Positions 30,891-61,559 of a stretch of DNA of 64,000 nt are shown piece by piece. How positions within the stretch are numbered: the stretch's first letter is position 1; every line of letters starts with the position of its first letter. The notes below the pieces were generated by a model that made no database searches, was not told where the DNA came from, and saw only the letters and a program-made list of their open reading frames with translations. The position numbers were made by a program, and so were the translations under genes. The stretch comes from Omnitrophica WOR_2 bacterium GWF2_43_52. Its GTDB lineage: Bacteria; Omnitrophota; Gorgyraeia; Gygaellales; UBA12090. The DNA lies in NCBI GenBank assembly GCA_001805445.1, contig MHGF01000025.1:64338-128337 (forward strand), read 5' to 3'.

Positions 30891-31906
30891 TGACGATGAT
30901 GAAAACACAATGTCCATTGATTAGTATTATTGTCGTAAATTATAATGGTAAGAGATATTTAAAAAATTGTTTTGATTCGCTCTATAAGCTCAAATATTCA
31001 CATTATGAGATAATTTTTGTAGATAATGGCTCTCAAGATGATAGTGTAAAATTTATCCGCTCAAATTTTCAAAAAGCACAAATTCTTAAATTACAGAGTA
31101 ATTTTGGTCTTGCTATTGCAAGTAATAGGGGAGCGAAAGTCGCAAAAGGGGACTATTTATTTTTTTTAAACAATGATACTTTAGTAGATGAAAATATTCT
31201 TACAGAATTAGTGCGCGTTGCACAGTCAGATAAAGGAATTGGAGTTTGTGCCTGTAATGTTTTTACCTATGATGGGAGGAAGGAAATAGGCATGGGAGTA
31301 GCCTGTGATAGATTTGGTTATCCCTGCGGAAATTTAGGGCCAGTTTTTTATCCTGACGCAGCAATCTTTGTCAACAGGTCTATCTTTGAGGAGGTAGGAG
31401 GTTTTGATTCGAAACTTTTCTTATATGGTGAAGATAGAGATTTATGCTGGCGAATTTGGCTGCGAGGATACAGAGTTGAGCCTGTGAAGAGCGCATGGTT
31501 TTTGCATGATTCTGCCTGTACCTTAGTAGGAGAAGAAAAGTATAAAACTAATGTTTGGAAACGAGAATTGGGAGAACGTAATTTAATACGTTCGATGTTG
31601 AAAAATTATTCCTTAAGCGGTTTAGTTTGTATTATTCCTCAGTACTTATTGCTCAGTGTCGCAGAGATATGTCTTTTACTGTTTGTAGGCCAGTTTAAGG
31701 TGGTTAAGCAAGCCTATTTCAGGGCGTATCTCTGGAATCTAAAAAACTTGAACGATACGTGGCATGAACACAAAAAAATTAGCAAATTAAGAAGAATAAA
31801 AGATATCGCAATGTGGAAGATTATGTCGAAAAAAATAGGTAAAATTCAAGTATTAAAATGGGTTGGGATTCCTCAATTTGAAGCTAAGTCATATAAAAGC
31901 AATTAA
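30887..31906 (+). CDS. Family 2 glycosyltransferase
   Basis: ISIIVVNYNG...IIFVDNGSQDDS and a DXD motif. Confidence 0.8.
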   Translation: MMTMMKTQCPLISIIVVNYNGKRYLKNCFDSLYKLKYSHYEIIFVDNGSQDDSVKFIRSNFQKAQILKLQSNFGLAIASNRGAKVAKGDYLFFLNNDTLVDENILTELVRVAQSDKGIGVCACNVFTYDGRKEIGMGVACDRFGYPCGNLGPVFYPDAAIFVNRSIFEEVGGFDSKLFLYGEDRDLCWRIWLRGYRVEPVKSAWFLHDSACTLVGEEKYKTNVWKRELGERNLIRSMLKNYSLSGLVCIIPQYLLLSVAEICLLLFVGQFKVVKQAYFRAYLWNLKNLNDTWHEHKKISKLRRIKDIAMWKIMSKKIGKIQVLKWVGIPQFEAKSYKSN

Positions 31907-31922
31907 AGGAGAAACTGGGAAC

Positions 31923-33248: not shown

Positions 33249-33262
33249 AGGAGGACTATTTA

Positions 33263-34228
33263 GTGGAAAATAAGAAAATTCTTGTTACTGGCGCGGGTGG
33301 ATTTATTGGGCACCATCTCATTAAGTATCTCAAAAAGAAGAAATTTTGGGTTAGAGGCGTTGACATAAAATTTCCTGAATACGAACAGACTCTGGCTGAC
33401 GAATTTGAACTTCTTGATTTAAGAAGATGGGCAAATTGTCTTCAGGCTGTACGGGGGGTAAATCAGGTTTATAATCTTGCTGCCAATATGGGTGGCATTG
33501 GTTTCATAGAGTCACATAAGGCCGAAATAGTCCATGACAATATCTTAATCAATATGCACATGTTAGAGGCAGCCCGATTGAATAAGATTGATAAATTTCT
33601 CTATACCTCATCTGCTTGTGTGTATCCAGGATATAAGCAGAATTCTCCTGACATTGCTCCTTTAAAGGAAGAGGATGCTTATCCTGCCGATGCTGAGGAT
33701 GGATATGGTTGGGAAAAACTGTATACTGAGAGGGCTTGTCGACATTACTATGAAGATTATAAACTTAAAACATATTGTGTGCGTTTTCATAATATTTATG
33801 GTCCTTTGGGGACTTACGATGGAGGCCGTGAAAAGTCTCCCGCTGCGATATGTCGTAAAATTGCCTTTGCTAAAACAAAGGATGAAGTAGAAGTATGGGG
33901 GGATGGAAATCAAACCCGTTCGTATTGCTATATTGATGATTGTGTCGAAGGGATTTTCCGACTTATAGAATCAGAATATCATGAGCCTCTTAACCTTGGC
34001 ACTGATAAAATGGTTACTATAAATCATTTAGTGGATATAGTTGCGAATATCGCTAACAAAAGGATATCTAAGCGTTATGATTTAGGTAAGCCTCAAGGGG
34101 TTAGGGGGCGAAACAGTGATAATACGAAATTACGTCAGGTGCTTAAATGGGAACCATGCGTAAGCTTGGAAGATGGCCTTAAGCTGACATATCATTGGAT
34201 TTTATCCCAAATAGAAAAGAATAGATAA
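33263..34228 (+). CDS. NAD-dependent sugar epimerase/dehydratase
   Basis: VTGAGGFIGHH motif. GTG start at 33263, preceded by a GAGGAGG Shine-Dalgarno. Confidence 0.8.
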   Translation: MENKKILVTGAGGFIGHHLIKYLKKKKFWVRGVDIKFPEYEQTLADEFELLDLRRWANCLQAVRGVNQVYNLAANMGGIGFIESHKAEIVHDNILINMHMLEAARLNKIDKFLYTSSACVYPGYKQNSPDIAPLKEEDAYPADAEDGYGWEKLYTERACRHYYEDYKLKTYCVRFHNIYGPLGTYDGGREKSPAAICRKIAFAKTKDEVEVWGDGNQTRSYCYIDDCVEGIFRLIESEYHEPLNLGTDKMVTINHLVDIVANIANKRISKRYDLGKPQGVRGRNSDNTKLRQVLKWEPCVSLEDGLKLTYHWILSQIEKNR

Positions 34229-35430
34229 TGAGTTGCACGAATAGTTTGTGTAAGGCTAATGTTTTACTATGTGGATTGGCGTACACAAGCAGAACTGAAA
34301 CCATTGAAGATTATTTAAAGGGTAAAGTAAAGTCTTTAACTGTGATTGCTCTTTCGAGTTGTTTTATTGACCGAAACTTTAGCTCGTGCAGGGTTTATGA
34401 AGAAGGAGTTTTAAAAAAAAGTTTTAAGGTAGCAAATTTTAGAATAAAAACCTATACTTGGTACAAGCAGCCATTAATACCACTAGTATTCCTTATTTAT
34501 TTCTTGTCTATTTGTTCTACATTGCTAAAACTGAATAAAAAACACGACCTGTATATTGGAGTTTCTTATTCCTTTGGGTTATGGGGTGCACTATTAAAGA
34601 AATTAGGAATTGTAAAGAGGCTGATCTATTATTCAATAGATTATTACATTCCTGAATATAAATTTGATCTTAACAATTTATATTTGATATTGTTAAACAT
34701 CGTAGAGCGTTTTATTGTACGTATGGCTGATTTTGTATGGGATATTTCGTATCAGATACAGACGTATAGGCAAAAAATAGGTAAAATTAGAATGGGAACC
34801 TATAGAAACATGGTTGTCCCTTTAGGTTACAGTAGTCATGTTAAGAGATTTAAAACAATGAGTGAAATGAAGCGATGGGAAATAGGATTTGTCGGGTCAA
34901 TAAGCGCTAATCAGGGTTTACAGCTTTTGGTTGAAGCGATGCCCTTTGTACTTAGTAAGTTACCGCGGGTAAGGGTTACGATTATTGGGCAAGGCCCTTT
35001 TTTAGCCCAACTAAAAGATTTAGTTAGACAAAAGGAAATGAACCATATTTTTAATTTCCTTGGTTTTATAAAAGATGAGAGTAAGATGCTAGATATCTTA
35101 TCAGAATGTGCCATTGCTGTTGCTTTGTATAGTGATTCTATTGATAACAAAAATATTATTTGTGCTGATGTTGGTAAGCCAAAGTTGTATGCGCTGGTAG
35201 GGCTTCCGATCATTGCTACTAAGTACTGCGGGCTAGCAGAGGCAATCAAGGATAATAAAGCTGGTGTTGTTGTTGATTATGATAAACATGATTTAGGGCA
35301 GGTTATTGTGAGTTTGTTATGTAAGGATGAAACATTAAAAGAATATCGTTATAATTCGTCAAAGATGGGAGAGCAGTTTATTGCGGACAATATTTTTAAT
35401 GCTGTATTTGAGCGAATGAATTTGAGCTAG
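34228..35430 (+). CDS. Family 4 (GT-B) glycosyltransferase
   Basis: C-terminal GLPIIATKYCGLAEAI...GVVVD motif typical of the GT4 family. Confidence 0.7.
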   Translation: MSCTNSLCKANVLLCGLAYTSRTETIEDYLKGKVKSLTVIALSSCFIDRNFSSCRVYEEGVLKKSFKVANFRIKTYTWYKQPLIPLVFLIYFLSICSTLLKLNKKHDLYIGVSYSFGLWGALLKKLGIVKRLIYYSIDYYIPEYKFDLNNLYLILLNIVERFIVRMADFVWDISYQIQTYRQKIGKIRMGTYRNMVVPLGYSSHVKRFKTMSEMKRWEIGFVGSISANQGLQLLVEAMPFVLSKLPRVRVTIIGQGPFLAQLKDLVRQKEMNHIFNFLGFIKDESKMLDILSECAIAVALYSDSIDNKNIICADVGKPKLYALVGLPIIATKYCGLAEAIKDNKAGVVVDYDKHDLGQVIVSLLCKDETLKEYRYNSSKMGEQFIADNIFNAVFERMNLS

Positions 35431-35431
35431 A

Positions 35432-36061
35432 ATGATTTACGATACTCATAATCCTGAAGTTATCAATTTCCTTTTTCAGGAAGCAAAACCAGGTGTAAGA
35501 ATCCTAGATGTAGGCTGTGGGACAGGGAAACTTGGCAAGCTGATAAAGTCAAAGATCAACTGTTATATTGAAGGTATAGAAATTGATCCAGAGGCTGCGA
35601 AGATCGCGCAAAAAGGTTATGATAAAATAATCGAGATTAATTTAGAAGAATTAATTGCTCAGAAAAAGCTGTTAGGCGCAATAGGGAAGTATGACATCAT
35701 AATCCTAGGGGATATTTTAGAGCATATTAGACAGCCAGATGAATTATTGCGTTCTTGCCAAGATGTATTAAAAGATAATGGTTATCTTATTGCATCTATT
35801 CCTAATATAGCAAACTGGATGATAAGGATAAAGCTGCTCTTTGGCATTTTTAATTATTCCGGAGGAATCCTAGATGAGGGACACGTAAGGTTTTTTACCT
35901 ATAAAACTGCGCGGAGACTACTTCAAAAAAACGGATATAGTATTATTTCAGTCACAAACAATAATCATACAATTCCCATAAAGGTTTTGGGTAGAATTTG
36001 GAAAAGATTGTTTGCTTTTCAGTTTGTTTTTAAATGCAGGAGAAATATATACGATGAGTGA
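35432..36061 (+). CDS. Class I SAM-dependent methyltransferase
   Basis: ILDVGCGTGKLG motif I. Confidence 0.75.
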   Translation: MIYDTHNPEVINFLFQEAKPGVRILDVGCGTGKLGKLIKSKINCYIEGIEIDPEAAKIAQKGYDKIIEINLEELIAQKKLLGAIGKYDIIILGDILEHIRQPDELLRSCQDVLKDNGYLIASIPNIANWMIRIKLLFGIFNYSGGILDEGHVRFFTYKTARRLLQKNGYSIISVTNNNHTIPIKVLGRIWKRLFAFQFVFKCRRNIYDE

Positions 36062-36836
36062 ACTTGTGCACAAAAAAAATATACAGAAATATTGGACAGA
36101 TAATGTTCCTGGTTTAGATAAGGGTGGGAAATCAGCGAAGATAGGTATGCAGTTTTTTAAAAAAATTGATAACTATAGGTTGCAGAATGAACCTTATGTT
36201 ATTCCCTTAATAGAAACTCTTTCTAAAAGCAAAGGGCGATTACTAGAAGTAGGGTGTGGTTTAGGTGCCGATTTAAGAAATTTTGCTGGCAGAGGCATGT
36301 CAACGGTAGGGGTAGACCTGTCGTTTAACAATGTCAAGTTAACAAAAAAAGGTTTAGAATTTTATAAGTATAATGGAAATGTCGTAAATTCGGATGCGGA
36401 GAATTTACCCTTCAAGGAAGCATCCTTTGATGCGTATTATTCATTTGGTGTGTTACATCATACCCCGGATACAGCAAAAGCTATTGCTGAGGCATATCGC
36501 GTTCTCAAAAAGGGAGGGAAATGTATAGTCATGTTGTATCATAAGGGCTATGCTTACTTATATATTAATGTGTTTTACGGATTTAAGCGATTATTTACTT
36601 CTGAGAATAAACTAATCAGTAATTATTATGATTCCACGCCTTTATCAAAGATGTATTCAAAAAAAGATGCGTATAGATTATTTCGAAATTTTAAGAATGT
36701 CAGTTTTGACGTCACAACATTTGCTTTTGGGGGAGTAGATGTCAATAGCAAATTAAAAAAAGTGCATCATTTGCTCAAAAATAGATTTTTAATGGAAAGA
36801 TTGGGGCAATTTTTAATCATAAAGGCAGAGAAATAA
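36054..36836 (+). CDS. Class I SAM-dependent methyltransferase
   Basis: LLEVGCGLGADL motif I. ATG at 36054 preceded by AGGAG; the ORF track starts at 36012. Confidence 0.75.
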   Translation: MSELVHKKNIQKYWTDNVPGLDKGGKSAKIGMQFFKKIDNYRLQNEPYVIPLIETLSKSKGRLLEVGCGLGADLRNFAGRGMSTVGVDLSFNNVKLTKKGLEFYKYNGNVVNSDAENLPFKEASFDAYYSFGVLHHTPDTAKAIAEAYRVLKKGGKCIVMLYHKGYAYLYINVFYGFKRLFTSENKLISNYYDSTPLSKMYSKKDAYRLFRNFKNVSFDVTTFAFGGVDVNSKLKKVHHLLKNRFLMERLGQFLIIKAEK

Positions 36837-36875
36837 CTGCCATGTTAGCTATTTAATTCAATAAATTTACTAGAT

Positions 36876-38312
36876 ATGATGAAAGTAATGTTAATTTTTC
36901 CACCAAACGTAGAAGTTATAGAGCCATTTAAGTCAGCTAAAAGAAAGCCCCCAAAATTGCTGTGGGGGTTTCCTTTAGGCATTGGTTATCTAGGTAGTGT
37001 TTTAAGGCAAAAAGGCTTTAATGTTTCAATTTTAGATTCTTGTTTTGAGGGGATGCATATGGATGATATAGTAAATAAAGTTGAAGAATTTAAGCCAGCA
37101 GTTGTTGGGATTGGTTGTTTAACCCATATCCTGAAAACTTCTGTAGTGTTAGCCAAAGCTATAAAAAAGAGAGACGAAAACATTAAAGTTGTTTTTGGCG
37201 GGCCGCACGCAACCTATGATTACGAAAATCTGCTTAAGATGAATGCTTTAGATTGGGTTGTAATAGGAGAGGGAGAGAATACTTTCACCGAACTCTGCGA
37301 AAAGATAAAAAATGGTCAATCCGTAGATAATGTAAAAGGTATTGCTTTCCGTGATTGTGACGGGAATATAAAAAAAACAGCTCTGCGGCCTTTAATAGAA
37401 GATTTAGATAATGTTCCGTTTCCTGCTCGTGATTTAGTAGATTTTGGTAAGTATATCAAGAGCTATGGAGTGCTAGAAAAAAGTGTTGATATAATGTCCT
37501 CTCGTGGTTGTGTTAATAGATGTATTTTTTGTAGTTCTTCACATCTTTTTGGAAAATGGCGGACACGAAGTTCACAGGATATAATTGCTGAAATCAGCGA
37601 GCTGGTAGAAAAGTATCCTGAAATAAAGTCTGTTAATTTTATGGATGATGATTTTACCGCCAATAAACAGAGAGTAATGGAATTATGCAATTTGTTAATT
37701 TCTACAGGCTTGAATAGATTGAATTGGGTATGTTTAGCTAGGGTTGATCAGCTTGATGAAGAGATGGTGCATAGCATGAAATTGGCTGGTTGTTTGAGAG
37801 TCCATTTGGGTATCGAGAGCGGTTCTCCTGAAATATTGAAAAATATAAATAAGCGTATATCCCTTCAGCAAGCGAGAAGTGCTGTAAAGTTGCTTTCAAG
37901 GGAAAAAATAGAAGCTTTTTCCTTTTTTATGGTTGGCCATCCTGGAGAAACGAAACAGACTATTGCGTTAACTAAAAGATTTGCTCACGAGTTAAAATCA
38001 GCAAACACAGGATTTTTTATTTCACAGGTTTTCCCAGGTACGGCGCTTGCTAGATTGCAACCGATACGGGATTGGGTTAGCTATGTTTATGAGCCTGAGA
38101 TTAACAATCCGTCAATCTTTACTCATCCTTGCATCCCGAATTTTATACCCGCTGGCTTCACGAGAGAATCGTTAAAAAAAATATGCGCAGGCATTACAAA
38201 GCAATTTATCTTTTTACATTTTGTCAGAAGGGCCCCATTATTTCTGAAAAAACTTATTATTGAACCAAAAGAAACCTTTAAATATATTATGGACGTTTTT
38301 TTCACTAAATAG
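36876..38312 (+). CDS. B12-binding radical SAM enzyme, a paralog of 19539-21104
   Basis: N-terminal cobalamin-binding fold (VVFGGPHAT) and the CVNRCIFCSS CX4CX2C cluster. Confidence 0.8.
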   Translation: MMKVMLIFPPNVEVIEPFKSAKRKPPKLLWGFPLGIGYLGSVLRQKGFNVSILDSCFEGMHMDDIVNKVEEFKPAVVGIGCLTHILKTSVVLAKAIKKRDENIKVVFGGPHATYDYENLLKMNALDWVVIGEGENTFTELCEKIKNGQSVDNVKGIAFRDCDGNIKKTALRPLIEDLDNVPFPARDLVDFGKYIKSYGVLEKSVDIMSSRGCVNRCIFCSSSHLFGKWRTRSSQDIIAEISELVEKYPEIKSVNFMDDDFTANKQRVMELCNLLISTGLNRLNWVCLARVDQLDEEMVHSMKLAGCLRVHLGIESGSPEILKNINKRISLQQARSAVKLLSREKIEAFSFFMVGHPGETKQTIALTKRFAHELKSANTGFFISQVFPGTALARLQPIRDWVSYVYEPEINNPSIFTHPCIPNFIPAGFTRESLKKICAGITKQFIFLHFVRRAPLFLKKLIIEPKETFKYIMDVFFTK

Positions 38313-38352
38313 TAGTTGGTAGTAGAAAATATGGTGATCGGCAGGGAGAAAG

Positions 38353-39063
38353 ATGAGCAATTTAAATAAAAATTTGTCTATAGCTTTAAGAAACCCTTTT
38401 AAATTTTATGATTATGCGAGAGCCTATTTTAACTATAAGAAAACAGTAGCTATTTTAACAGGCACTTCTCTCAAAGAAGTGAATAATTTTTATCATGAAA
38501 TTTTTTCTTCCCATTTTGTTGCAGAAATTATAAAAAAATCAAAATGTCGTTCTGGATTTTCTTATCTGACTATGCTTACTCCCTTTAGGGCCCCTACGCT
38601 TTATGTGCTTTGTAGGATTTTAAAGCCTGAAGTGTTGGTTGAAACAGGTGTAGCGCAGGGTTTTTCATCAGCATTTATATTGTATGCTTTAGAAGTAAAT
38701 AAGAAAGGACGTTTATATTCTATAGACTTGCCTAATCAGCCAGGGCAAGAGATAGGAAACAAAACCGGGTGGCTTATTCCGGATAGTTTTAGAAAGAGAT
38801 GGGAACTTATATTAGGCCCATCAAAAGAGTATCTCCCTGTTTTGCTGAAGAAGCTGAACAGGATAGATTTCTTTTATCATGATAGTGACCATAGCTATGA
38901 AAATATGGTTTTTGAATTCGATTGTGCATGGCATTATCTTAGGAGAGAAGGTCAATTGTTAGCCGATGATATTACGGATAGCCTCGCGTTTGACGAATTA
39001 GTAAGGAATAAAAATTGTACATTTAGAAAATTATTTAAGATGGGCATTGCATGTAAAAAATAA
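38353..39063 (+). CDS. Methyltransf_24/CmcI-like O-methyltransferase
   Basis: LVETGVAQGFSS and FFYHDSDHSYENM resemble the macrocin/cephalosporin-hydroxylase-type methyltransferase family. Confidence 0.6.
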   Translation: MSNLNKNLSIALRNPFKFYDYARAYFNYKKTVAILTGTSLKEVNNFYHEIFSSHFVAEIIKKSKCRSGFSYLTMLTPFRAPTLYVLCRILKPEVLVETGVAQGFSSAFILYALEVNKKGRLYSIDLPNQPGQEIGNKTGWLIPDSFRKRWELILGPSKEYLPVLLKKLNRIDFFYHDSDHSYENMVFEFDCAWHYLRREGQLLADDITDSLAFDELVRNKNCTFRKLFKMGIACKK

Positions 39064-39077
39064 GGATTACCATAAAA

Positions 39078-39788
39078 ATGTTGAAAAATAAAAAGAATGT
39101 TAAAGAGCTCATATATAATTTTTCAAGTAAATTCGGGATAGGGGTTTTTCGTAGAGTCTTTCCTGAATATTTTGCAAAGGAGCCTTTGAAGCCTACAGAT
39201 AGGTATATTGAGTATCCCTTTGTTATCCGAAATTTGCCTAAGCCGCCAGCTAAAGTATTGGATGTTGGCTGTTCCGGGAGCTGTTTTCCCTTATTATTAA
39301 CAGGTTTTGGTTATGATGTCTTTGGGGTAGATGTAAGAGAATACGCTATAATTAATAAGATGAAATTCAGCAACTTTCATTTTATAAAAGAGGATATCAG
39401 GAAAAATTATTTTAGCGATAACTATTTTGACGCTGTAATCGCAATTTCTACGGTTGAACACATAGGTTTGTTTGGAAGATATGGTATGGATGATGATTTG
39501 GGAGGCGATAAGCAGGCAGTAGCTGAAATGAAGAGAATTGTTAACCAGAATGGAGTTATTTTATTAACATTTCCGTTCGGAAAAGCAAAAATATTAAAAC
39601 CATATACAAGAGTTTATGATAGCAATTTAGTAAAGCTCCTCACAGTGGGTTTGGAAATTGAGACGGAAGAATATTATATGCAGGATATTGAGGAAAATTG
39701 GTATCAGTGCCATCGGAATGAAGCAGAAGCGGTAAATGCTAATAATGAGCGATATCCACTATGTCTGATTAAGCTGAGAAAGAAATAG
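39078..39788 (+). CDS. Class I SAM-dependent methyltransferase
   Basis: VLDVGCSGSCF motif I and a motif II acidic residue. Confidence 0.7.
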   Translation: MLKNKKNVKELIYNFSSKFGIGVFRRVFPEYFAKEPLKPTDRYIEYPFVIRNLPKPPAKVLDVGCSGSCFPLLLTGFGYDVFGVDVREYAIINKMKFSNFHFIKEDIRKNYFSDNYFDAVIAISTVEHIGLFGRYGMDDDLGGDKQAVAEMKRIVNQNGVILLTFPFGKAKILKPYTRVYDSNLVKLLTVGLEIETEEYYMQDIEENWYQCHRNEAEAVNANNERYPLCLIKLRKK

Positions 39789-39828
39789 CATTTTTCTTCC
39801 TTTCCATGTATGCATTTTAAAGGAAATA

Positions 39829-41655
39829 GTGAATAAGCATTTGAGCATACTCGCTGCGTTTTTATGTTTGATAATTGTTGCGACTTTCCCCCTTTTTTTA
39901 AATATCACAAACTATATCCCCGGCTTTTTCTCAACAGATGAATCCTACGCAATCTTATGGAATTCCTGGCTTAACAAATTTTCTGCAGTAAATAATCTTC
40001 CTGTTAAAAATACAAATCTTATTTCCTATCCGTTTGGCATTGTTAATAGCGGAGCTGGATATTTATGGTTTTTCATCAATTATATCTTAGCTTTGCTGAC
40101 TACTCCTGTCCTGACATACAATTTACAACTTATTTTTAATATGATTCTTATCATTGCATTCTTGTATTTTTTAGTCTACTACCTTGCAAAGAATAAATTT
40201 TCTGCATTTATTTCAGCTGTTATTTTTGGATTTTGCCCTTATTTCTTTGTTCGTTCATGGCAACATCTAGGGGAAACTTATTTGTGGTCGCTGCCGATGG
40301 TTCTATTAAGCTTGTTTTTATTGAAGCAGAATGATTCGCTCAAGGTTAAAATCTTTTGTATTCTAAGTTTCATTCTGACAGTTATAAATTTTAATGCGGT
40401 GAATTATGTTATTGTTATTATGTCGTTTTTTCTCGTTTATAATTTCACCTATTATTTTATCGTAAAAAAGAATCGAAATGATGCTTCAGTTGAGAGAATC
40501 GGTGGATACTTTAAAAATATATTTATTGTATCTTTGATATCTTTTTGCATTGTTGTCCCGCAATTTTACAGTATAGTGAGGAATATGGTTATTGCAAGAA
40601 AGAGTGCGCCATCGGGATTTAATCTTTATCATCGTCCATTTCAGGATTTATTTGAACAGTCAGCTAAGCCTTTAAGTTATGTCTTGCCTGCTGTCGTTCA
40701 CCCTATTTTTGGTAAATTTACTGAGCAATTTATCGGTTCTCCCTTATATGGAATGAGTGTGACTGAGCATACACTTTATCTCGGCTGGACGCCGCTTCTG
40801 CTTGCGTTTTTTGGATTTAAAAGATGGCGTTTAAAACGCAAGCACTCACCCATCACCACTCACCTATCGCCAGATAGAAATAGAGAAGATTTTTATATTG
40901 GCTTCTTCGTATTTTTGGTCATTGTAGCTTGGTTATTCTCACAGCCGCCCTGGTGGAATATATTTGGCTTTAAACTGTATATGCCTTCATTCTTTATGTA
41001 TAAAATCCTGCCGATGTTTAGGGCATATTGCAGGTTTGGGATAGTGGTGATGCTGGCAGTTGCTGTGTTGGCCGGGTTTGGGTTGAAATATGTTTTAGAG
41101 AAGTTTAAAACCAAAAAGTCAATGATTGGCGTTACGGCCTTGTTTTGCGGATTAGTTTTGTTTGAATTTTGGAATTGGCCTCCTTATAAAATAATAGACC
41201 TTTCAAAGATTCCTACGGTCTATTATTGGCTTAAAGAGCAGCCTAAGGATATAGTTATTGCCGAGTATCCTGTAGATACAAGTTCTCCTAATGAAATGTA
41301 TAGGTTGTATCAGGTTACTCACGAAAAAAAAATGATTAATTATACCATCCCCGGAACCTATGCCAATAAGGTTGCCCAGGAAATCAGGCGGTTGTCTGAA
41401 CCTAAGACAGCATCTATCCTCAAGTGGATGGGGGTAAAGTATGCGGTGGTGCATAAAGATGATTATTTGAAAACAGATTTAATTGAAGATAAGGAAGATA
41501 TGGAAAAGATTCCTAAAAATCGCAGCCTTAAATTCGTCAAAAGTTTCCCGCCCCAGGAATGCCCTGACCCCAAACTGATGTGCGTGCAGAAAACCGGCCC
41601 CATAGATGTGTATGAGGTGGTGGCCCCGCCATTAGAGCCGTCGCCGCCAAAATAA
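39829..41655 (+). CDS. Large polytopic membrane protein of the glycan island (putative membrane glycosyl- or oligosaccharyl-transferase/polymerase)
   Basis: 608 aa, GTG start, with more than ten hydrophobic helices and a soluble C-terminal domain. Its last ~125 nt recur three times downstream. Confidence 0.6.
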   Translation: MNKHLSILAAFLCLIIVATFPLFLNITNYIPGFFSTDESYAILWNSWLNKFSAVNNLPVKNTNLISYPFGIVNSGAGYLWFFINYILALLTTPVLTYNLQLIFNMILIIAFLYFLVYYLAKNKFSAFISAVIFGFCPYFFVRSWQHLGETYLWSLPMVLLSLFLLKQNDSLKVKIFCILSFILTVINFNAVNYVIVIMSFFLVYNFTYYFIVKKNRNDASVERIGGYFKNIFIVSLISFCIVVPQFYSIVRNMVIARKSAPSGFNLYHRPFQDLFEQSAKPLSYVLPAVVHPIFGKFTEQFIGSPLYGMSVTEHTLYLGWTPLLLAFFGFKRWRLKRKHSPITTHLSPDRNREDFYIGFFVFLVIVAWLFSQPPWWNIFGFKLYMPSFFMYKILPMFRAYCRFGIVVMLAVAVLAGFGLKYVLEKFKTKKSMIGVTALFCGLVLFEFWNWPPYKIIDLSKIPTVYYWLKEQPKDIVIAEYPVDTSSPNEMYRLYQVTHEKKMINYTIPGTYANKVAQEIRRLSEPKTASILKWMGVKYAVVHKDDYLKTDLIEDKEDMEKIPKNRSLKFVKSFPPQECPDPKLMCVQKTGPIDVYEVVAPPLEPSPPK

Positions 41656-41659
41656 AATC

Positions 41660-41688
41660 TTGACAATTTCCTGTAAAGGCGGCATAAT
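41660..41688 (+). promoter_or_regulatory. Sigma70-like promoter TTGACA-N17-CATAAT upstream of the islet A ATPase
   Basis: Seen directly, immediately after the membrane-protein stop. Confidence 0.4.
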
Positions 41689-41762
41689 CAGGGTTGATAT
41701 TATTATCCTTGGTAGAAGGATGAAATAAGCACATTATATACTTCCATGAAGGATGAAAAAAA

Positions 41763-43046
41763 ATGATCGGCAAGGAAAAATTAAAAGAAATAATACTGTC
41801 AAATAAGGAATTTATCCTGAATCAGGTTGAGGTAATAATAAAGAGAGAGGGATTCCGCCTGCCTGGGGCCGTAGAGAAGGTAATGGTGCTGTATGGAGTC
41901 AGGAGGAGCGGGAAGACCTTTATTCTTTACGATTTATTCCGGAATTTCAGGGAGGAATCTCTCTATATTGATTTTGAAGACGAAAGGCTGGCGGATTTCA
42001 GGTTGGAGGATTTTGAGACCTTAAGAGAAGCGTTTTTAGAGCTGAATCCGCGCCTTGTGGATAAAAACAAGGTATTTTTGTTTGATGAAATACAAAATAT
42101 CGCAGGATGGGAGAAATTCTGCCGCAGGGTGGCGGAAAGAGAAAAGACAAGAGTGTATGTTTCTGGCTCCTCTTCTAAGATTATGCCGGAGGAGATTCAT
42201 ACCTCTTTACGGGGGAGGGCTTGGAGCATCGAGATAACGCCGTTTTCTTTCAGGGAGTATTTAAACGCGCTGGAGCCGGCAGTGGATAATGAGCTGCTTT
42301 ATGGCCGAAAGAAAGCCCTGCTTAAGAAATATTTCAGCGATTATTCGCGTTGGGGAGGTTTTCCTGAAATCGTGTTTTCAAAGAGCGAATTTGACAAAAG
42401 CAAAATAATAAAGGAGTATTTAGGGTCGATTTTCTTCAAAGATTTGGTGGAAAGATATAAGATAAACAATATAGCGTTGCTGGAGTCGATGACCGAGTGT
42501 TTATTCGCTTTCTTCTCGCAAAAGTTTTCCCTCAACTCTTTTTACCGCCAGCATAAGGATAAAATACCTTTCTCCAAAGACAGCCTTTTCAGTTATTATA
42601 AATATTTCCTGCAGTCTATGCTTATCTTTGAGGTGAGAAAATTTTCCGAATCGCCGTATAAAAGGTTGAGGAATCCCGCGAAGATTTACCTGATTGATCC
42701 AGCGCTTGCCAGAAAGATGTCTTCCCAGGATAGCGGCAGGGTTTTGGAAAACATTATTTTCCTGGAATTGAAAAAGAGCGCGGATAAAATTTCTTATTTT
42801 GAGGAGGATAATGAATGCGACTTTGTGGTTAATGAAAGAGGCAAGATTCTGGCTTATCAGGCTTGTTATGAACTAACTTCACAGAATGAGGAGAGGGAGC
42901 TGGGTGGCCTTATAGCCTGCTGCAAACAGCTAAAATTGAAGGGAGGCATTATATTAACCTTGGATCAAAGTGATGAATTCATAAGAGACGGTATAAAAAT
43001 TCATGCGCTTCCAGTATGGAAATGGCTGATGACCAAAAAAGTTTAA
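41763..43046 (+). CDS. COG1373-type AAA+ ATPase with DUF4143, a paralog of 24492-25637
   Basis: Walker A VRRSGKT and Walker B LFDEIQ, with the same architecture as the other ATPase. Confidence 0.75.
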   Translation: MIGKEKLKEIILSNKEFILNQVEVIIKREGFRLPGAVEKVMVLYGVRRSGKTFILYDLFRNFREESLYIDFEDERLADFRLEDFETLREAFLELNPRLVDKNKVFLFDEIQNIAGWEKFCRRVAEREKTRVYVSGSSSKIMPEEIHTSLRGRAWSIEITPFSFREYLNALEPAVDNELLYGRKKALLKKYFSDYSRWGGFPEIVFSKSEFDKSKIIKEYLGSIFFKDLVERYKINNIALLESMTECLFAFFSQKFSLNSFYRQHKDKIPFSKDSLFSYYKYFLQSMLIFEVRKFSESPYKRLRNPAKIYLIDPALARKMSSQDSGRVLENIIFLELKKSADKISYFEEDNECDFVVNERGKILAYQACYELTSQNEERELGGLIACCKQLKLKGGIILTLDQSDEFIRDGIKIHALPVWKWLMTKKV

Positions 43047-43133
43047 CTTGATCGTTATGCGATAGAGTCAAGGTACGGAGATTACCGAAGAAGGCTTTCT
43101 GAGATTATAAGTAAGAAAACGGCGGTTAAATAG
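43047..43133 (+). pseudogene. Possible C-terminal remnant of a HEPN (PF05168-type) gene
   Basis: The frame immediately after the ATPase TAA reads LDRYAIESRYGDYRRRLSEIISKK*. From memory (no search run), this matches the (E/L)xxYYIxxRYP(D) segment near the C-terminus of HEPN partners of MNTs. An MNT gene follows. Confidence 0.3.
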
Positions 43134-43159
43134 TTAGCGCAGACCAAGGAGATATTTGA

Positions 43160-43495
43160 GTGGTTAAGAAGGCAGAAGAAGTAGATAGTCTAATTAAGAG
43201 CTTCGCCGAAGAGTTAAAAAAGGAAATACCAGTACAAAAAATATATCTTTTTGGCTCTTACGCGACAGGGAATCCCGAACCAGGCAGTGATATAGATTTA
43301 ATTGTTGTCTCTTCGTTTTTTGCAAAAGGCAGACATATAAGCCATATGCAGTATCTTTTCCGAAAGGCTTCCAAGATAAGTACTCTTATTGAGCCTATAC
43401 CCGCCACTCCATCAGAAGTGAAAAACCCTGACAAGAGAGTTTTTATTGGACAGATAATAAAAACTGCCAAGTCATATAACTTTGCTTTGAAATAG
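43160..43495 (+). CDS. Minimal nucleotidyltransferase (MNT, pol-beta superfamily)
   Basis: LFGSYATGNPEPGSDIDLIVV motif. GTG start with an AAGGAG Shine-Dalgarno. Confidence 0.7.
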   Translation: MVKKAEEVDSLIKSFAEELKKEIPVQKIYLFGSYATGNPEPGSDIDLIVVSSFFAKGRHISHMQYLFRKASKISTLIEPIPATPSEVKNPDKRVFIGQIIKTAKSYNFALK

Positions 43496-43508
43496 TCTAG
43501 ATTTCTCG

Positions 43509-43636
43509 TTAAATTCGTCAAAAGTTTCCCGCCCCAGGAGTGCCCCGACCCTCAAATGATGTGTGTGCAAAAGACGGGTGCGATTGATGTGTATGAGGTG
43601 GTGGCGGAAGCGATGGAGCCTTTAGCTGATAAGTAA
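43509..43636 (+). repeat. Copy 2 of the 3'-terminal ~125 nt of the membrane-protein gene (reads KFVKSFPPQECPDPQMMCVQKTGAIDVYEVV...)
   Basis: About 85-90% nt identity to 41527-41655 over the first ~100 nt, judged by eye. Confidence 0.7.
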
Positions 43637-43726
43637 AGCCTACATATTGGTTTTACGGGCTTTGAATCCGTTTATTAGTTGAAAATAGATTGACGATATG
43701 GTAAACTTATTCTGGAGGTGATTAAA

Positions 43727-43951
43727 ATGCGATTTTTACGAATAACAGTTAATCCGGAGGTTTGTATGGGCAAGCCTTGCATAAGGAATCTGCGTTTTCC
43801 GGTTTCTCGGCTCTTGGGTTTATTAGCGGCAGGGGAGACCAAACAAGATGTCTTAAAGGCGTTTCCTTATCTTGAGTCTCAAGATGTTGACGAAGCGCTA
43901 AGTTATGCCGCTTCTTTGGCTGATGAGGAAACATTAGAATTTGCAAAATGA
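43727..43951 (+). CDS. DUF433 protein (antitoxin-like partner of DUF5615)
   Basis: GKPCIRNLRFPVSRLLGLLAAGETKQDVLKAFPYLESQDVDEALSYAA fits DUF433. ATG at 43727 with a GGAGGTG Shine-Dalgarno. Confidence 0.7.
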   Translation: MRFLRITVNPEVCMGKPCIRNLRFPVSRLLGLLAAGETKQDVLKAFPYLESQDVDEALSYAASLADEETLEFAK

Positions 43952-44321
43952 AATTTCTGGTAGATATGCCTATTTCTCCAAAAATAGTTGATTGGCTGAA
44001 TCAAAATGGCCATGAAGCCAGCCATGTTTTCAGCATGGATTAGCTACAGCCTCTGATATGGCAATTATTGAGAGAGCATATCAACATAAAGAGGTGATAA
44101 TTACCGCCGATCTTGATTATCCTAGAATTCTTGCCTTGACTAAACTTGATGGTCCAGGGATTGTCCTTTTTCGTGGTGGTAACTACAGCGAACGTGAAAT
44201 GCGAGATTTAATGCAAAGGGTATTGAAAGTTGTTCCTCATCAAGATATGCCGAATAATATTGTGGTTATTGATAAGGCGAGAATTCGGCGAATCTCCCTC
44301 CCCATCAAAGCAGAATCATAG
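43949..44321 (+). pseudogene. DUF5615 (PIN-like/Mut7-C-like) gene with a +1 frameshift
   Basis: MKFLVDMPISPKIVDWLNQNGHEASHVFSMD stops at about 44041. The protein continues in another frame as ...ASDMAIIERAYQHKEVIITADLDYPRIL...GPGIVLFRGG. Confidence 0.6.
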
Positions 44322-44348
44322 AGTTTTACTTTTCCCCGAGACCAGGGC

Positions 44349-44475
44349 CTTAAATTCGCAAAAGTTTCCCACCCAGGAATGCCCTTACCCGAATATAATG
44401 TGCGTCCGGAAGGCCTGCCCCATAAATATGTATGAAGTGGTGGCTGTGCCAGTTGAGCTGGCAGTTAAAAAATGA
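44349..44475 (+). repeat. Copy 3 of the membrane-protein gene 3' end (reads KFPTQECPYPNIMCVRKACPINMYEVVAVPVELAVKK)
   Basis: More divergent than copy 2. It has the same 5' boundary (CTTAAATTCG.CAAAAGTTTCCC). Confidence 0.7.
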
Positions 44476-44525
44476 ATTATTCTCTCAACAAAACCTTGAC
44501 ACCGCTGAAACTTGTAAGTAAGTAC

Positions 44526-44552
44526 ACTAAGTTAACAATAATGTTAACTTAG
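44526..44552. promoter_or_regulatory. Perfect 13-bp-arm palindrome ACTAAGTTAACAT-A-ATGTTAACTTAGT
   Basis: Seen directly. Further AT-rich palindromes (TACAACATGTATGTTGTA) lie at 44720-44785, immediately upstream of the AbiEii-like gene. Confidence 0.35.
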
Positions 44553-44787
44553 TATGCCTATAGAATATCAGAAGTTATGGTAAAAAGGCAAGATAAATTT
44601 TGACGTAACGCACTGAAATTACCCAAGTTATATAATTAATATATATGATAAGAATGAGAGCGTTAAAAGCCGGAATAAGACAGCCAGATATTTGCTCTGG
44701 ATTAAAGTAGAAAGTGTATAGCAAATTTTACAACATATATATTGTATTTAACTTGACAATACAACATGTATGTTGTATATTTAGAGT

Positions 44788-45501
44788 ATGAAGACGATTG
44801 TATCATGGCAGGATAAGGTCTTGAGAATTCTTTCTGGCAGGCTCGACAACTATTGTTTGGGCGGAGGAACGGCGCTGTCCAAATTTTATTTTAATCACCG
44901 TATGTCTTTTGACCTTGACTTTTTTACCCAGAGGTACAGCCGTAAAGAGATAATTTCTTTGCTTAAGTTTTTATCAGAAGAATCCGGAAAAGATTTTGAG
45001 ATACTCAAAGAGCAGCCTAAAAAGGATAAAGTCCGCATATTGGTTTCTAACGCGCGTCTATCCCCAAGGTATTCGCTGAAGATTGATTTTGTAGAGGATT
45101 ATATAAAGAGATTGAAGCCGGCAAGGCAGTCTAATGGTATATGGGTTTTTTCTCTTGAGGATATTTATCTGCGCAAGATCTACGCGGTATCCGGAACCCT
45201 GGAAAACATTAATGAGATTGGACGCAGGATAAGAACCGGAGGCAGGCAGGAAGCAAAGGATTTTTATGACCTATATTTTCTTTCTCATACTTTTACGAAT
45301 TTATCCGCGTTCGCTGGAAAATATTGTAATCCAGCGATGCAGGAGGCATTGATAAATTGGTTTAGAAGCTATCCGCGATTAGAGATTAAAACCGGGATCC
45401 TGGAGTTAAGAACTAAAAATAAAGTTGATTATAGAGCAATGGAGAAGCATTTTAAGGTTGAAATAGGGCGTATCTTGGAAAATCAGATAGGAAGAGTATG
45501 A
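44788..45501 (+). CDS. AbiEii/AbiGii-family nucleotidyltransferase (DUF1814) toxin-like protein
   Basis: CLGGGTALSKFYFNHRMSFDLDFF signature. Confidence 0.65.
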   Translation: MKTIVSWQDKVLRILSGRLDNYCLGGGTALSKFYFNHRMSFDLDFFTQRYSRKEIISLLKFLSEESGKDFEILKEQPKKDKVRILVSNARLSPRYSLKIDFVEDYIKRLKPARQSNGIWVFSLEDIYLRKIYAVSGTLENINEIGRRIRTGGRQEAKDFYDLYFLSHTFTNLSAFAGKYCNPAMQEALINWFRSYPRLEIKTGILELRTKNKVDYRAMEKHFKVEIGRILENQIGRV

Positions 45502-46019
45502 ATAAGGATTGGTTGTGGGATAGGAACATAAGCCCTAAGCAGGCACAGAAAATTTTAGGTAATCCGGAACATCCGAAATTTATTGCCGTAGCCGCTTTAC
45601 TGCTTAGCAGGAAAAATGTTCCCCGGGAAGTTTTTCGGGATTATCTCAAGCCTAAGGATTTCTGCCGTCATTGGAATGAGATTAAGAAACGGATGCGAAA
45701 GGATGCCTGGCAAAGCCCGCGGATAGGATTTTGGCAGGCTGTATATGAGAAAATACTGGAGCAATATCGCAGGAATAACAGAGGTGTATTGTTAAGGGGT
45801 AAGACAAAGCCGATTGATGAGTTTTGTTTATCAGTAGGCGAAAAGCTTAGGTTGCTGCGTAAGCAGAATAATCTTACCCAGAACGAGTTAGCGGATAAAT
45901 TAAAAGTTTCTCAACAGTTGATTTCTCGGATTGAAAAAGGCAGGGAAAATATTTCCTTGCTTACTTTAAAAAAGATAATCAGTAAGTTAGGTGCTAAGCT
46001 TGATATAGTTGAAATTTAG
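45498..46019 (+). CDS. XRE-family HTH transcriptional regulator with an N-terminal domain of unknown function
   Basis: C-terminal LRLLRKQNNLTQNELADKLKVSQQLISRIEKGRENISLLTL (HTH_3). Its start overlaps the AbiEii stop. Confidence 0.7.
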   Translation: MNKDWLWDRNISPKQAQKILGNPEHPKFIAVAALLLSRKNVPREVFRDYLKPKDFCRHWNEIKKRMRKDAWQSPRIGFWQAVYEKILEQYRRNNRGVLLRGKTKPIDEFCLSVGEKLRLLRKQNNLTQNELADKLKVSQQLISRIEKGRENISLLTLKKIISKLGAKLDIVEI

Positions 46020-46186: not shown

Positions 46187-46214
46187 TTGACAACACTTTG
46201 CGGCATGTTATACT
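46187..46214 (+). promoter_or_regulatory. Sigma70-like promoter TTGACA-N16-TATACT upstream of the SpvB-domain gene
   Basis: Seen directly. An AAGGAG Shine-Dalgarno lies at 46248-46253. Confidence 0.4.
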
Positions 46215-46257: not shown

Positions 46258-49200
46258 ATGCTAAAGCTAAAGTTTTTTTGGCGTTTATCTTGGTATAATT
46301 TATTTCTGATCCTCTTTTTTTGTCTTCTTCTTACACCCGCTTTTGCCGTTCTTCCTACCACCGGCACAGTCACCCCCTCAAGCGGTACCACAACCCCAGA
46401 CGTTGCAAGAAGCTTTTCAACTATATACACTGACACAGACGGCTGGGCAAATTTACGTGAGTGCTACTTTTTAGTGAGCACCAGCTCAACCAGCCTTACT
46501 AACGCAAGCTACCTTTACTACAACCAAAATACCAATCTGCTGTATGTAAGGAACGACGCTAACACCGCCTGGCTTGGCGGCTATGCCCCCGGTAGCGCCA
46601 ACCTAATCGAGAATTCTTACGTACGGCTTAATTGCGCCATGACTACCGCAACAGGCTCAGGCTCCAGCCTTACCATAAGCTGGAATGTTACCTTTAAGCC
46701 TGCATATTCTGGAAGAACGTACAATACCTATCTTAGGGCAGTAGATGACGCTTCAGGCTCTGCAAGCTGGGCAAGTAAAGGCACCTATACGGTAAACCGC
46801 TCGCCTCTTGTTGGCACTATCACACCCTCTACAGGCAGCGGCCAGATATCTATAGCCCAAACCTTTACGGCAACCTACACTGATTCAGATGGCTGGCAGA
46901 ACCTCCAGCAGGTATATCTCTTGATCAACAGCTCTACCGGAACTACCAACTGCTTTTACGGCTACTATAACCAGAACACGAATTTACTATACTTAAGGAA
47001 TGATGATAATACCTCATGGCTTGGCGGTTATGCCCCTGGTTCAAATAATACCATAGAGAATTCCTACGTCAAGTTAAACTGCGCCAGTACCAGTATTTCA
47101 GGCACAAGCTCAACATTAACCGTTAACTGGTCAGTTACGCTCAAGGCTCCTTTTACCGGCAGCCGTAATACGTATTTGTATGCCAGAGATGATGTAAATG
47201 TAACTAACGGCTGGACCCAAAAAGGCACCTGGAGTATTCTCAATACCGCCCCTATCCTAGGCACAATTACCCCCAGCTCTGGCTCATCAAGCCCCAATCA
47301 AACAGTAAGCTTTACCACTACCTACACAGATTCCGACACCTGGCTTAACATCCAATACGTCTATTTGCTCGTTAACACCTCAACCTCAGGAGTCAATTGC
47401 TTCTACGGCTACTACAACCAGAACAATAACCGTCTTTACCTAAGAAATGACGCCAATACCGCCTGGTCAACCGGCTATGCCCCAGGTGCAAGCAATGTGA
47501 TAGAGAATAGCTATGCCAAACTCAACTGTGCCGGCACAAGCGTCTCAGGCTCAGGCAATACCATGACCGTAAACTGGTCAGTAACCTTTAAAAGTACCTT
47601 TCCCGGCACCAAGAATACCTACCTTTACGTGAGAGACGACGCCAATAGTTATGTAAGCCTGGCCCAAAAAGGCACCTGGAGTATTCAGACAGACACCACC
47701 CCACCAACCGGCACAATCAAGATAAATAACGACAGTCAGTATACTAATTCAAGCACGGTGAGCCTCACTCTTTCCGCTACAGATACCGGAAGCGGCATGG
47801 GAACAGGGGCACAGATGCAGTTCTCTAACGACGGCACAACATGGTCAACCGCGGAAAACTACACCACCACTAAAACCTGGACACTCTCAAGCGGCCAAGG
47901 CGAAAAGCGGGTTTACGTGCGCTACAAAGACGCAGCCGGTAACTGGTCAAGCGCTTATTCAGATGTCATCACCCTGGATACCACAGCTCCGACTATAACC
48001 ATAACCTCGGTTACCAGCCCTACAAATCAGGATGTAACGTTAAGCTATAGTGTAAGCGATAATTATACCGCCCAAAGCCAAATCACGGTAACAGGTGATA
48101 ACTCACCCTACACCACAGAAGGCACACATAGCATAGCCCTCAGCGCCAAAGACTTAGCCGGAAACACCGCTACAAAATCAGTCAGCTTTACCATAGACAA
48201 AACCGCGCCAGCCATTGTGATTACCTCACCCGAAGACGGCGCAACCGTTGAAACTAATTCCATCACCCTGCAAGGCACTATTGATGGGCAAAGCTTTTCC
48301 GAGACAGTTACCCTTAGCCAGGAAGGCGAGAATACCATCACCAAAACCGTAACCGACTTAGCCGGCAATACTGCCAGTAAATCTATCACCCTGTATTATT
48401 ACCTCGGCGAGACAATCGGCTCTGCAGGCGGCGTAGTTTATTCAAATGACGGTAAGGTAAAACTGACTATACCTACTGGCGCATTGACGGAAAACAAGCA
48501 AATTAAAGTCTTGACAATAAACACCGAAAGCCTTGAAGGCAGTGAGCCGAATAATACCAGCCTCTTGAGTGTGGTTGAATGTAAGCCCTACGGCTTAGTC
48601 TTTACTAAACCCGCAACTCTTAGCTATACCCTGAATCAGGCGGAAGTCCCCGGCACGCCGGTAGAATTAGGCCTATACGATTCGCTCCAGGACAAGATTA
48701 CCTCAACCGGCCAGAGCACCACCGTGCCGGTAGACGGGTATACCGTAGATTTTAGCATTATGCACTTCTCAACCTATGCCGCGTTAAAGAACCTGATAGC
48801 CCAGAGCACCCCGATAGGAGCAAATGTAAAAATACCCTTACCGGATATGCTCACCGGCACCTTTAGCCACGCCATACCTATAACCGTAGTCCCGGGAAGA
48901 AAGGGTATGCAGCCGGCAATAGGCTTAAGCTATCGCTCAGGCAGCCCTAACTCATGGGTAGGCTTAGGCTTTAGCCTGAATCCTGGCTATATCGTAAGGT
49001 CAACCCGCTTAGGCCCGCCCAAGTATAACGATACCCAAGACACCTTTTACTTAATCACTGACGCAGGGACTACCGAGCTGGTGCACTTAATTGATAACTT
49101 ATATCAGGCAAAGGTGGAGAGCGCATTCAGTAAGTTTTATAAAGAAGGCGATGATTCCTGGAGTGTGGTGGGTAAAGACGGCTCAGTTTTAAGGTTTGGA

Positions 49201-61559: not shown

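Follow-up and report, generated by a model that had tools for sequence, protein, structure and literature searches.

Two linked Omnitrophota genes, divided at the SpvB-propeller linker, encode the probable halves of a Tc-BC-like RHS cocoon

The stretch of DNA considered here, which we call the window, comprises 64,000 nucleotides (nt) of contig MHGF01000025.1 of Omnitrophica WOR_2 bacterium GWF2_43_52. The DNA is chromosomal, and all window coordinates given below are relative to this stretch. Two open reading frames (ORFs) present there are the subject of this study. The first encodes P1, a protein of 1122 amino acids (aa) that ends with a SpvB domain, and the second encodes P2, a protein of 1971 aa that carries an FG-GAP propeller, a TcdB mid-N domain, an RHS shell, and a C-terminal putative toxin (Table 1). 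We describe the domain content of the two proteins, the position and conservation of the break between them, and the evidence that P1 and P2 belong to one unit.

Residues 866 to the C-terminus of P1 match the Pfam SpvB profile (PF03534) with 76 bits against a cut-off of 22 (E = 3.7e-21), and a 13-sequence family profile matches 6p0x, TcdB2, TcdB1, and YenB (residues ~37-207) with E values from 5e-11 to 2e-8. When the AlphaFold2 (AF2) model of the ZU5-SpvB part of P1 was used in a Foldseek search, 5kis_A, 4igl, and 4o9x were matched over ~300 columns (E ~1e-10). These profile and fold matches agree with the initial annotation, in which SpvB had been named as the C-terminal domain of the 1122-aa protein. 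The P1 frame ends with ...SYQRGK followed by a TAG codon at 49624-49626, and the SpvB domain is 56-76% identical to those of its orthologs, with invariant motifs. Domain profile searches found FG-GAP, mid-N, and RHS all on the second protein, as had also been proposed. A 150-nt periodicity of the DNA (57060-57860) reflects the six FG-GAP blades, and the Rhs-associated core (TIGR03696) covers residues 1702-1784 of P2 (E = 4e-23). The further proposal that these regions start a secreted P2 was right as to their presence and wrong as to their position, since the propeller is preceded by a signal-peptide-like N-terminus and ~430 aa of Ig/cadherin-like domains (three of the Big_9 type; Ig, immunoglobulin).

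Related loci (numbered with L) were gathered by a search with the SpvB domain of P1 and then by a scan of species-representative genomes, which added 32 loci. The domain search returned 46 proteins of 189-472 aa, each with ZU5 and/or SpvB only, and the named ones are nearly all from Candidatus Omnitrophota. The ZU5-SpvB frame stops no more than 36 nt past the domain in 38 related loci as well as in the window. Every named record among the split loci is Omnitrophota or labelled PVC (Planctomycetes-Verrucomicrobia-Chlamydiae), and L029 (NZ_CP019384.1, about 768.5-775.9 kb) belongs to a complete genome, that of Candidatus Velamenicoccus archaeovorus LiM. Linkage was counted in 27 loci, including the window, each with at least 6.7 kb of 3' sequence; a P2-like gene lies 3' on the same strand in 24 of them. 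In the contigs examined, this gene encodes an FG-GAP/mid-N/RHS protein of ~2000-2300 aa; it adjoins the SpvB gene in L004 and L005 and lies one gene away from it in L001 and three in L003. Six shorter contigs end inside the 5' region of a P2-like gene. The gap between the two genes varies from 14 nt to 3.2 kb across the loci, the shortest distances being 14 nt (L005) and 69 nt (L029, where P2 has its own GAGG and ATG), and the window has the largest gap, about 6 kb (5.9-6.0). A readthrough from P1 into P2 was considered for L028 and L029, in which the two genes share a reading frame, and was rejected because P2 starts 69 nt on with a ribosome-binding site (RBS), ATG, and signal peptide of its own.

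A profile search against clusters at 50% identity gave a similar partition. The 48 best clusters cover ZU5 and SpvB together; 42 of these end with SpvB and three continue. In the next 102 clusters only SpvB is matched, close to the N-terminus. More than 100 aa follow it in 87 of them (54 have a length of at least 1500 aa), and this is the classical fused form. One locus (L042) has a divergent split without ZU5, in which a gene for a 340-aa SpvB protein is followed, in this order, by a fibre gene, a 253-aa ORF, a methyltransferase gene, and a P2-like gene (40% identity), and the existence of this variant argues that the split is deep. The initial annotation had offered an ancestral gene split by insertions as one of two explanations of the architecture. 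This explanation fails as stated, because relatives have the two genes 14-69 nt apart with nothing between them and because P2 comes with an RBS, start codon, signal peptide, and Ig domains of its own; the fission thus predates the 6-kb spacer and is independent of it. We conclude that the split is an inherited design, old and conserved across a group of very small bacteria that may be predatory, and not insertion damage.

The place of the break was located by comparison with fused relatives, which read ...TFTYQ, then a linker of 15-20 aa, and then GDxNGD at the first blade. The first blade of P2 begins ~10 residues past its last Ig domain, and the aligned sequences place the break exactly at the SpvB-propeller linker. 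A survey for fused homologs, as had been suggested, was productive. P0204, a natural fusion of metagenomic origin, is a single ORF of 3568 aa on a 12.2-kb Joint Genome Institute (JGI) contig and has both halves on one chain. Its N-terminal half consists of ~8 repeats of the P1 type, Ig, ZU5 with the HFS motif described below, and SpvB (43% identity to P1 residues 622-1110); propeller, mid-N, RHS, and core follow directly (49% identity to P2 residues 551-1795), and the signal peptide and Ig region of the P2 type are absent. Among more distant forms, six fused proteins are 42, 38, 32, 31, 28, and 26% identical to the SpvB domain of P1 and, in the same order, 33, 30, 27, 30, 28, and 26% identical to the propeller/mid-N region of P2, so that they rank broadly alike on both halves, with the top three in the same order. 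Two other fused proteins, P0209 (3153 aa) and P0210 (1453 aa), have an insertion of ~400 aa within SpvB, at a point that corresponds to the junction of P1 residues 948 and 949, and P0209 has an extra N-terminal FG-GAP array. The 160-aa insert of fused P0062 showed no homology to the Ig region of P2.

In 18 paired loci, SpvB distances and shell distances were strongly correlated (Mantel r = 0.90, permutation p <= 2e-4), a co-divergence that indicates co-inheritance and not interaction as such. Homologs of the two proteins are encoded separately, but their phylogenies are congruent rather than independent. A two-partner architecture, the other explanation offered initially, is upheld by the split in every related locus examined, by the co-divergence of the halves, and by the existence of the single-chain P0204. 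We regard P1 and P2 as very probably two halves of a single ancestral unit.

The ZU5 domain of P1 was modelled by AF2 with a predicted local distance difference test score (pLDDT) of ~90, and its fold matches are the ZU5 domains of ankyrin and UNC5b. P1 shares with the autoproteolytic ZU5 domains of the PIDD/UNC5CL type both this fold and, on the last strand but one, a His-Phe-Ser (HFS) motif, which in PIDD is where cleavage occurs. In family alignment A1 the motif does not vary; it is found in 59 of 65 family members and is present in P0204 as well. In the AF2 model a single further ZU5 beta-strand follows HFS. The members without the His (P0036, P0180, P0181, P0185, P0186, and P0190) have SFS, TFS, RFS, GFS, or no motif at this place and, if HFS is the cleavage site, may be uncleaved variants.

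A joined AF2 model was made of P1 residues 838-1122, starting from the Ser of HFS, and P2 residues 456-1100, with an alignment (A2) of family members and natural fusions; the model is therefore one covalent chain with fusions in its alignment. It had a mean pLDDT of 83.9 and a predicted template modelling score (pTM) of 0.64. Confidence in the SpvB part is moderate, its mean pLDDT being ~62 when modelled with ZU5 alone and ~87 in the joined model, and the pLDDT of the strongly conserved stretch after HFS (...KIPLPDMLTGxFSHAIPITVxPGRKG...) increased from ~30 to ~78-90. Foldseek matched the joined model to TcdB1, YenB, and TcdB2 over ~1240 columns (E = 1e-44 to 1e-37), with a template modelling (TM) score, normalized to the query, of 0.56-0.63 (0.61-0.63 for 12 of the 13 chains); Rhs proteins from type VI secretion systems (T6SS) as well as teneurins gave at most 0.27, the teneurins at most 0.12. 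With 6p0x_A, TM(target) was 0.47 for the P1 model and 0.62 for the joined model. In this model, then, the P1 and P2 parts fit the TcB arrangement; fit, and not binding, is what the model shows.

Table 1. Features of the P1-P2 region (positions in the window).
Feature	Position	Strand	Remarks
Promoter-like site	46187..46214	+	TTGACA-16-TATACT with TG extension, 44 nt 5' of P1 start; consensus match only
P1	46258..49626	+	Signal-peptide-like N-terminus, three ~149-aa repeats, Ig-like, ZU5, SpvB, stop
Three tandem ~149-aa repeats	46354..47697	+	447-nt DNA period
Ig-like region	47740..48393	+	OmpL47-type, Big_13, Glucodextran_B-like
ZU5	48412..48792	+	Pfam ZU5 E = 5e-7, residues 719-789
HFS motif (residues 836-838)	48763..48771	+	Predicted autoproteolysis site HF/S
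SpvB / TcB-N-terminal-type domain	48808..49623	+	Ends 3 residues past conserved 'YQ'
23S_rRNA_IVP / Avd-like four-helix-bundle protein, 127 aa	49673..50056	+	Recurs directly after SpvB gene
Secreted fibre-like protein, 285 aa	50023..50880	+	Probable start ATG 50053; MAT-type N-domain, variable C-terminus
Class I SAM (S-adenosylmethionine) methyltransferase	50992..51720	+	Weakly similar one in same position elsewhere
Window-specific ORFs	51733..54607	+	292-aa CarboxypepD_reg/Ig-like; 487-, 122-, and 71-aa ORFs of no assigned family
PIN cassette	54630..55545	-	Toxin 54767-55186, putative 88-aa antitoxin 55177-55443, 97-nt direct repeats
Four 16-17-nt tandem repeats (GGTnAACnCGnTnACnGG) and 36-nt imperfect inverted repeat	55555..55625	.	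Directly 5' of P2 start
P2	55644..61559	+	Signal peptide, 'SASYxL' duplicate, Ig/Big_9, propeller, mid-N, RHS shell, Rhs core, toxin
FG-GAP beta-propeller, six blades	57048..57860	+	FG-GAP_3 from residue 474; joined-model pLDDT ~90
TcdB_toxin_midN	57741..58199	+	Residues 700-852, E = 8e-21
RHS/YD shell and Rhs-associated core	58200..60995	+	RHS_repeat E = 1.8e-35; end ...NPINYIDPTGH
C-terminal domain, 188 aa, putative toxin cargo	60996..61556	+	Ortholog-variable, hydrophobic segment
88-aa ORF, candidate immunity protein	61556..61822	+	Overlaps P2 stop; inferred by position only

The DNA between P1 and P2 has a recurrent part (~49.7-51.7 kb) and a part specific to the window (~51.7-55.5 kb, about 3.9 kb). 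The IVP/Avd-like gene is also found in L003, L012, L013, L014, L018, and L039, and its product gave the only match, an Avd-like one, in a PHROGs scan of the spacer proteins. A diversity-generating retroelement (DGR) acting on the fibre, considered on account of the Avd-like gene, was not supported, there being no long template/variable repeat pair between 46 and 62.5 kb and no reverse transcriptase among the scanned proteins. The fibre protein matches NCBIfam NF053851 (Bdello_MAT_N; MAT, mosaic adhesive trimer) with 63.1 bits against a cut-off of 60 (E = 2.6e-17). Its homologs occur in at least 24 loci, with ~140 conserved N-terminal aa and variable C-termini, and the gene usually is the next one to follow the SpvB gene or, in loci where P1 and P2 abut, follows P2; we observed homologs in L001 (11315-), L009 (6261-), L010 (11274-), L042 (1536-2069), and ~20 further loci. 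The cassette has in the fibre a conserved third member. A methyltransferase gene occupies the same position in L003, L014, L022, L024, L026, and L042. The 292-, 487-, 122-, and 71-aa ORFs have no counterparts in other loci save for a weak match of the 71-aa ORF just 5' of P2 in L015. The initial view that the genes between P1 and P2 are unrelated is therefore correct for ~51.7-55.5 kb and incorrect for the IVP-like, fibre, and methyltransferase genes, which recur in many loci.

The toxin-antitoxin (TA) cassette, which fits the PIN family of type II TA systems, had been described as a repeat-flanked PIN module, and this was confirmed: 97-nt direct repeats that are 73% identical lie on both sides of it, at 54630-54726 and 55449-55545. 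The toxin matches PIN_3 (E = 1.4e-16) and TIGR00305 (E = 4.6e-17); the 88-aa ORF upstream, on the same minus strand, overlaps the toxin start by 10 nt and has no family match. L039 has four tandem PIN cassettes 5' of P2 (6300-10000), and between these lies a second copy, 156 aa long, of the P2 N-terminus. Because PIN cassettes lie there in both the window and L039, the region 5' of P2 appears to be a place where cassettes repeatedly land or are amplified, and their occurrence in two genomes suggests a hotspot of recombination or amplification. An integron attC reading of the 97-nt repeats, together with the GTTAAC hairpin described below, was rejected because the ends, compared by eye, misfit the canonical R'/R'' core. 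The 6-kb spacing in the window is secondary and is made up of a conserved IVP/fibre/methyltransferase core, the window-specific ORFs, and the PIN cassette.

The ~149-aa repeat of P1 had no sequence match in Pfam, NCBIfam, or the PDB and may be an undescribed beta-rich surface domain; relatives have one to three copies, and fused P0204 has ~8 (residues ~20-1270). P2 has an internal duplication of its own (F-x-A-x-S-A-S-Y-K-L...S-A-S-Y-V-L, residues ~33-85, 55740-55900), which is found right after the signal peptide in all orthologs and is visible as a 33-nt DNA repeat. The tandem repeats 5' of P2 may be a regulator-binding array, and the 36-nt imperfect hairpin near them (within 55540-55625) has GTTAAC at both ends. 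At the other end of P2, the domains that follow ...DPxGH in 19 orthologs are 175-318 aa long and unrelated except for a Gly-rich hydrophobic stretch, which usually precedes a variable end. The 188-aa domain of P2 starts like that of L007 and is ~85 aa shorter; this cargo end, with its short domain and an IS3 element nearby, may have been remodelled. The candidate immunity ORF matched no family, and the other loci held no homolog of it; orthologs of P2 are followed by small, non-homologous ORFs, none with a recognised immunity domain.

The housekeeping genes of the window include those for RNase E/G, Obg, tyrosyl-tRNA synthetase (TyrRS), and S1, and a secretin gene is present. A low-GC block (35-37%) at 26000-41700, 5' of the TA-rich and toxin region, is devoted to polysaccharide biosynthesis and is probably a variable island for surface polysaccharides. 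Its genes specify epimerases and dehydratases of sugars, UDP-glucose dehydrogenase, glycosyltransferases, methyltransferases, and a B12-radical SAM enzyme. Small genes of the defence or TA type (AAA_14/DUF4143 ATPase, nucleotidyltransferase, DUF5615, AbiEii toxin, and a helix-turn-helix (HTH) protein) occupy 41763-46019, just 5' of P1, and relatives have genes for an HTH-cupin protein and a two-component system 5' of the P1 homolog. In total, the region has no more promoter-like sites than expected from shuffling. An IS3-family transposase gene (62472-63326) lies 0.9 kb 3' of P2.

The closest described class consists of the ZU5-SpvB-propeller-RHS toxins (Zhang, Aravind et al. 2012, PMC3482391), in which ZU5 is mostly found with SpvB and the propeller and was proposed to be a releasing autopeptidase. 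P1 and P2 together have all modules of this class in the canonical order and likewise lack TcA, and P0204 represents the single-chain form at 43-49% identity. Those toxins are one polypeptide, whereas the chain of P1 and P2 is broken after SpvB into two genes, P2 has gained a signal peptide and Ig domains, and a fibre gene usually lies between or beside the pair. The class is thus known; what is new is the conserved fission at the SpvB-propeller linker. The literature searched held no description of a two-gene split at this point, and public annotation names the parts only.

The propeller and shell span ~1320 aa here, as against ~1800 aa in TcdB2-TccC3 (an estimate from domain boundaries). In the model, P1 and P2 have the same arrangement of SpvB, six-bladed propeller, mid-N, and RHS as the TcB-TcC cocoon (TcdB2-TccC3, 4O9X; YenB-YenC2, 4IGL), and the Rhs core and an encapsulated variable C-terminus are common to both. 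The TcB-TcC cocoon is also two polypeptides that form one unit, and its break has been interpreted as the genetic rearrangement of a single functional unit (PMC6425310). It lies mid-shell, however, whereas the break between P1 and P2 is at the SpvB-propeller junction; TcB-TcC comes from insect pathogens, and P1 and P2 come from Omnitrophota and have ZU5, repeat, and Ig extensions. A TcC-type Rhs core with a predicted autoproteolytic motif and a hypervariable C-terminal region is present in P2, but SpvB is on P1 and the propeller and shell are on P2. Among the window ORFs scanned and the genes called in the loci, we detected no ORF larger than P2, no VRP1 or TcA_TcB_BD, and no TcA-like injector near P1 and P2. 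Because no TcA was found there and the TcB equivalent is not on one chain, the pair is not a Tc toxin by membership.

Other systems share single elements with the pair. Salmonella SpvB (6P0X) has the same domain (TM(target) 0.47-0.62) without propeller or RHS; there it is N-terminal and fused to an ADP-ribosyltransferase, in contrast to P1, where it is C-terminal, follows ZU5, and is paired by gene with a cocoon. Teneurins and bacterial teneurin-like proteins resemble P1 and P2 in their Ig repeats, plug, propeller, YD shell, and Rhs core, and their closure is analogous (PMC6425310); unlike P1 and P2, these proteins have an FN-plug and an NHL propeller on one chain, and the joined model matches teneurins poorly (TM <=0.12). 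The fibre shares an N-domain match and the pattern of a conserved N-terminus and variable C-terminus with the Bdellovibrio MAT fibres (PMC10769870), but it is much shorter (177-298 as against ~1000 aa) and comes from another phylum, and linkage of the Bdellovibrio fibres to a SpvB/RHS pair is not reported.

The observations described above concern linkage and architecture, namely, the domain content, the position and conservation of the break, the single-chain counterpart, and the co-divergence. They lead us to favour, as a reasonably probable interpretation, a two-chain Tc-BC-like RHS cocoon that is completed in trans by the SpvB module of P1 after self-cleavage of ZU5. As judged from the N-terminal sequences, P1 and P2 would each be exported through Sec by its own signal peptide. 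P1 would then cleave itself at HF/S, as the conservation of the motif and the proposal made for ZU5 (PMC3482391) suggest. Because one ZU5 strand follows HFS in the model, the SpvB module would stay attached non-covalently, held to the repeat/Ig stalk only through this strand. In TcB the SpvB region forms an extension of the YD shell and, together with the propeller, plugs its opening (PMC6425310); the SpvB module of P1 would dock on P2 at the position that the TcB N-terminus takes in Tc toxins, extend the shell, and with the propeller close the lower opening. The Rhs core would cleave the variable C-terminal toxin and retain it inside, and the co-encoded MAT-type fibre and the Ig domains might provide target binding. 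Assembly of P1 and P2 in trans in this way seems likely to us, if by a modest measure. One could also envisage a detachable lid, in which pulling on the stalk or fibre at target contact removes SpvB and opens the RHS shell, giving a mechanically gated release independent of TcA; we consider this step unlikely, and if true it would mean mechanical toxin release in predatory or epibiotic Omnitrophota.

Several results weigh against the two-chain cocoon. Co-divergence is expected of any two vertically inherited neighbours. The TM score of 0.62 could come mostly from the P2-derived 69% of the joined chain, and the rise in pLDDT is confounded by the differing alignment. Six of the 65 ZU5-SpvB proteins lack the His of HFS, and three of the 27 loci (L008, L012, and L033) have a P1-like gene without an intact P2 within 9-10 kb. 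P2 is reduced to a 181-aa N-terminal remnant in L008 (6802-7347), where P1 and the fibre gene are intact, and no P2-like gene was found within 10 kb in L012 and L033 (complete genome CP070837.1), which argues that P1 can persist without an adjacent partner. These three loci would also be accounted for if the two proteins were independent, P1 being a self-standing surface protein or adhesin with a separate role for its SpvB domain and P2 a self-sufficient toxin closed by its own Ig region, with linkage reflecting only a common regulon or island. That Salmonella SpvB has the domain without propeller or RHS (6p0x), and that P2 has ~430 aa of N-terminal domains of its own, would agree with such independence. 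It would not explain why the break coincides exactly with the domain linker that fused relatives have or why P0204 has the full P1 architecture contiguous with a P2 shell; moreover, the 14-69-nt gene spacing suggests co-transcription, the joined model reproduces the TcB arrangement, and the SpvB region of TcB is part of the shell and not an independent module (PMC6425310). We therefore think independence of the two proteins rather unlikely.

The history of the pair could also be read in the opposite direction, with the two-gene state ancestral in the lineage and chains like P0204 arising by secondary fusion, a change that would leave the mechanism the same. Only three of the 48 closest clusters are fused, and the divergent ZU5-less split of L042 places the split deep, as such a history would predict. 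Outside the clade, however, SpvB is N-terminal in long RHS proteins in 87 of 102 representative matches, with thousands more below, and fused Omnitrophota relatives (P0062) are included; P0204, in addition, lacks the signal peptide and Ig domains of P2, as expected of an unsplit form and not of an end-to-end fusion. We judge this polarity improbable. A recent event in the window genome, in which insertion of a TA cassette or insertion sequences (IS) broke one gene and left two non-functional remnants, has far less to recommend it and is hardly credible. The region is rich in TA modules and has an IS3 transposase gene, and in the window the spacer is the largest and the C-terminal toxin domain is short; nevertheless, the two ORFs are of full length and intact, ~38 other loci have the same stop, relatives have the same P2 N-terminus without an insertion between the genes, and the identity of the P1 SpvB domain to its orthologs (56-76%), with its motifs invariant, is at odds with decay.

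For annotation, the results mean that Omnitrophota genes for a 'SpvB/TcaC N-terminal domain-containing protein' are to be read together with the downstream RHS gene. They also indicate that the cocoon fold can accommodate a break at a second point, beyond that of TcB/TcC, which is useful for the engineering of Tc-like delivery capsules. P1 and P2 bear on how RHS cocoons open and release their cargo without a TcA injector: with the putative shell-closing piece on a separate chain, behind a predicted self-cleaving joint, assembly, closure, and opening would become separately addressable. Candidatus Velamenicoccus archaeovorus has been described in the literature among predatory Omnitrophota, and the linked MAT-type fibre hints at a prey-recognition toolkit common to Omnitrophota and Bdellovibrio.

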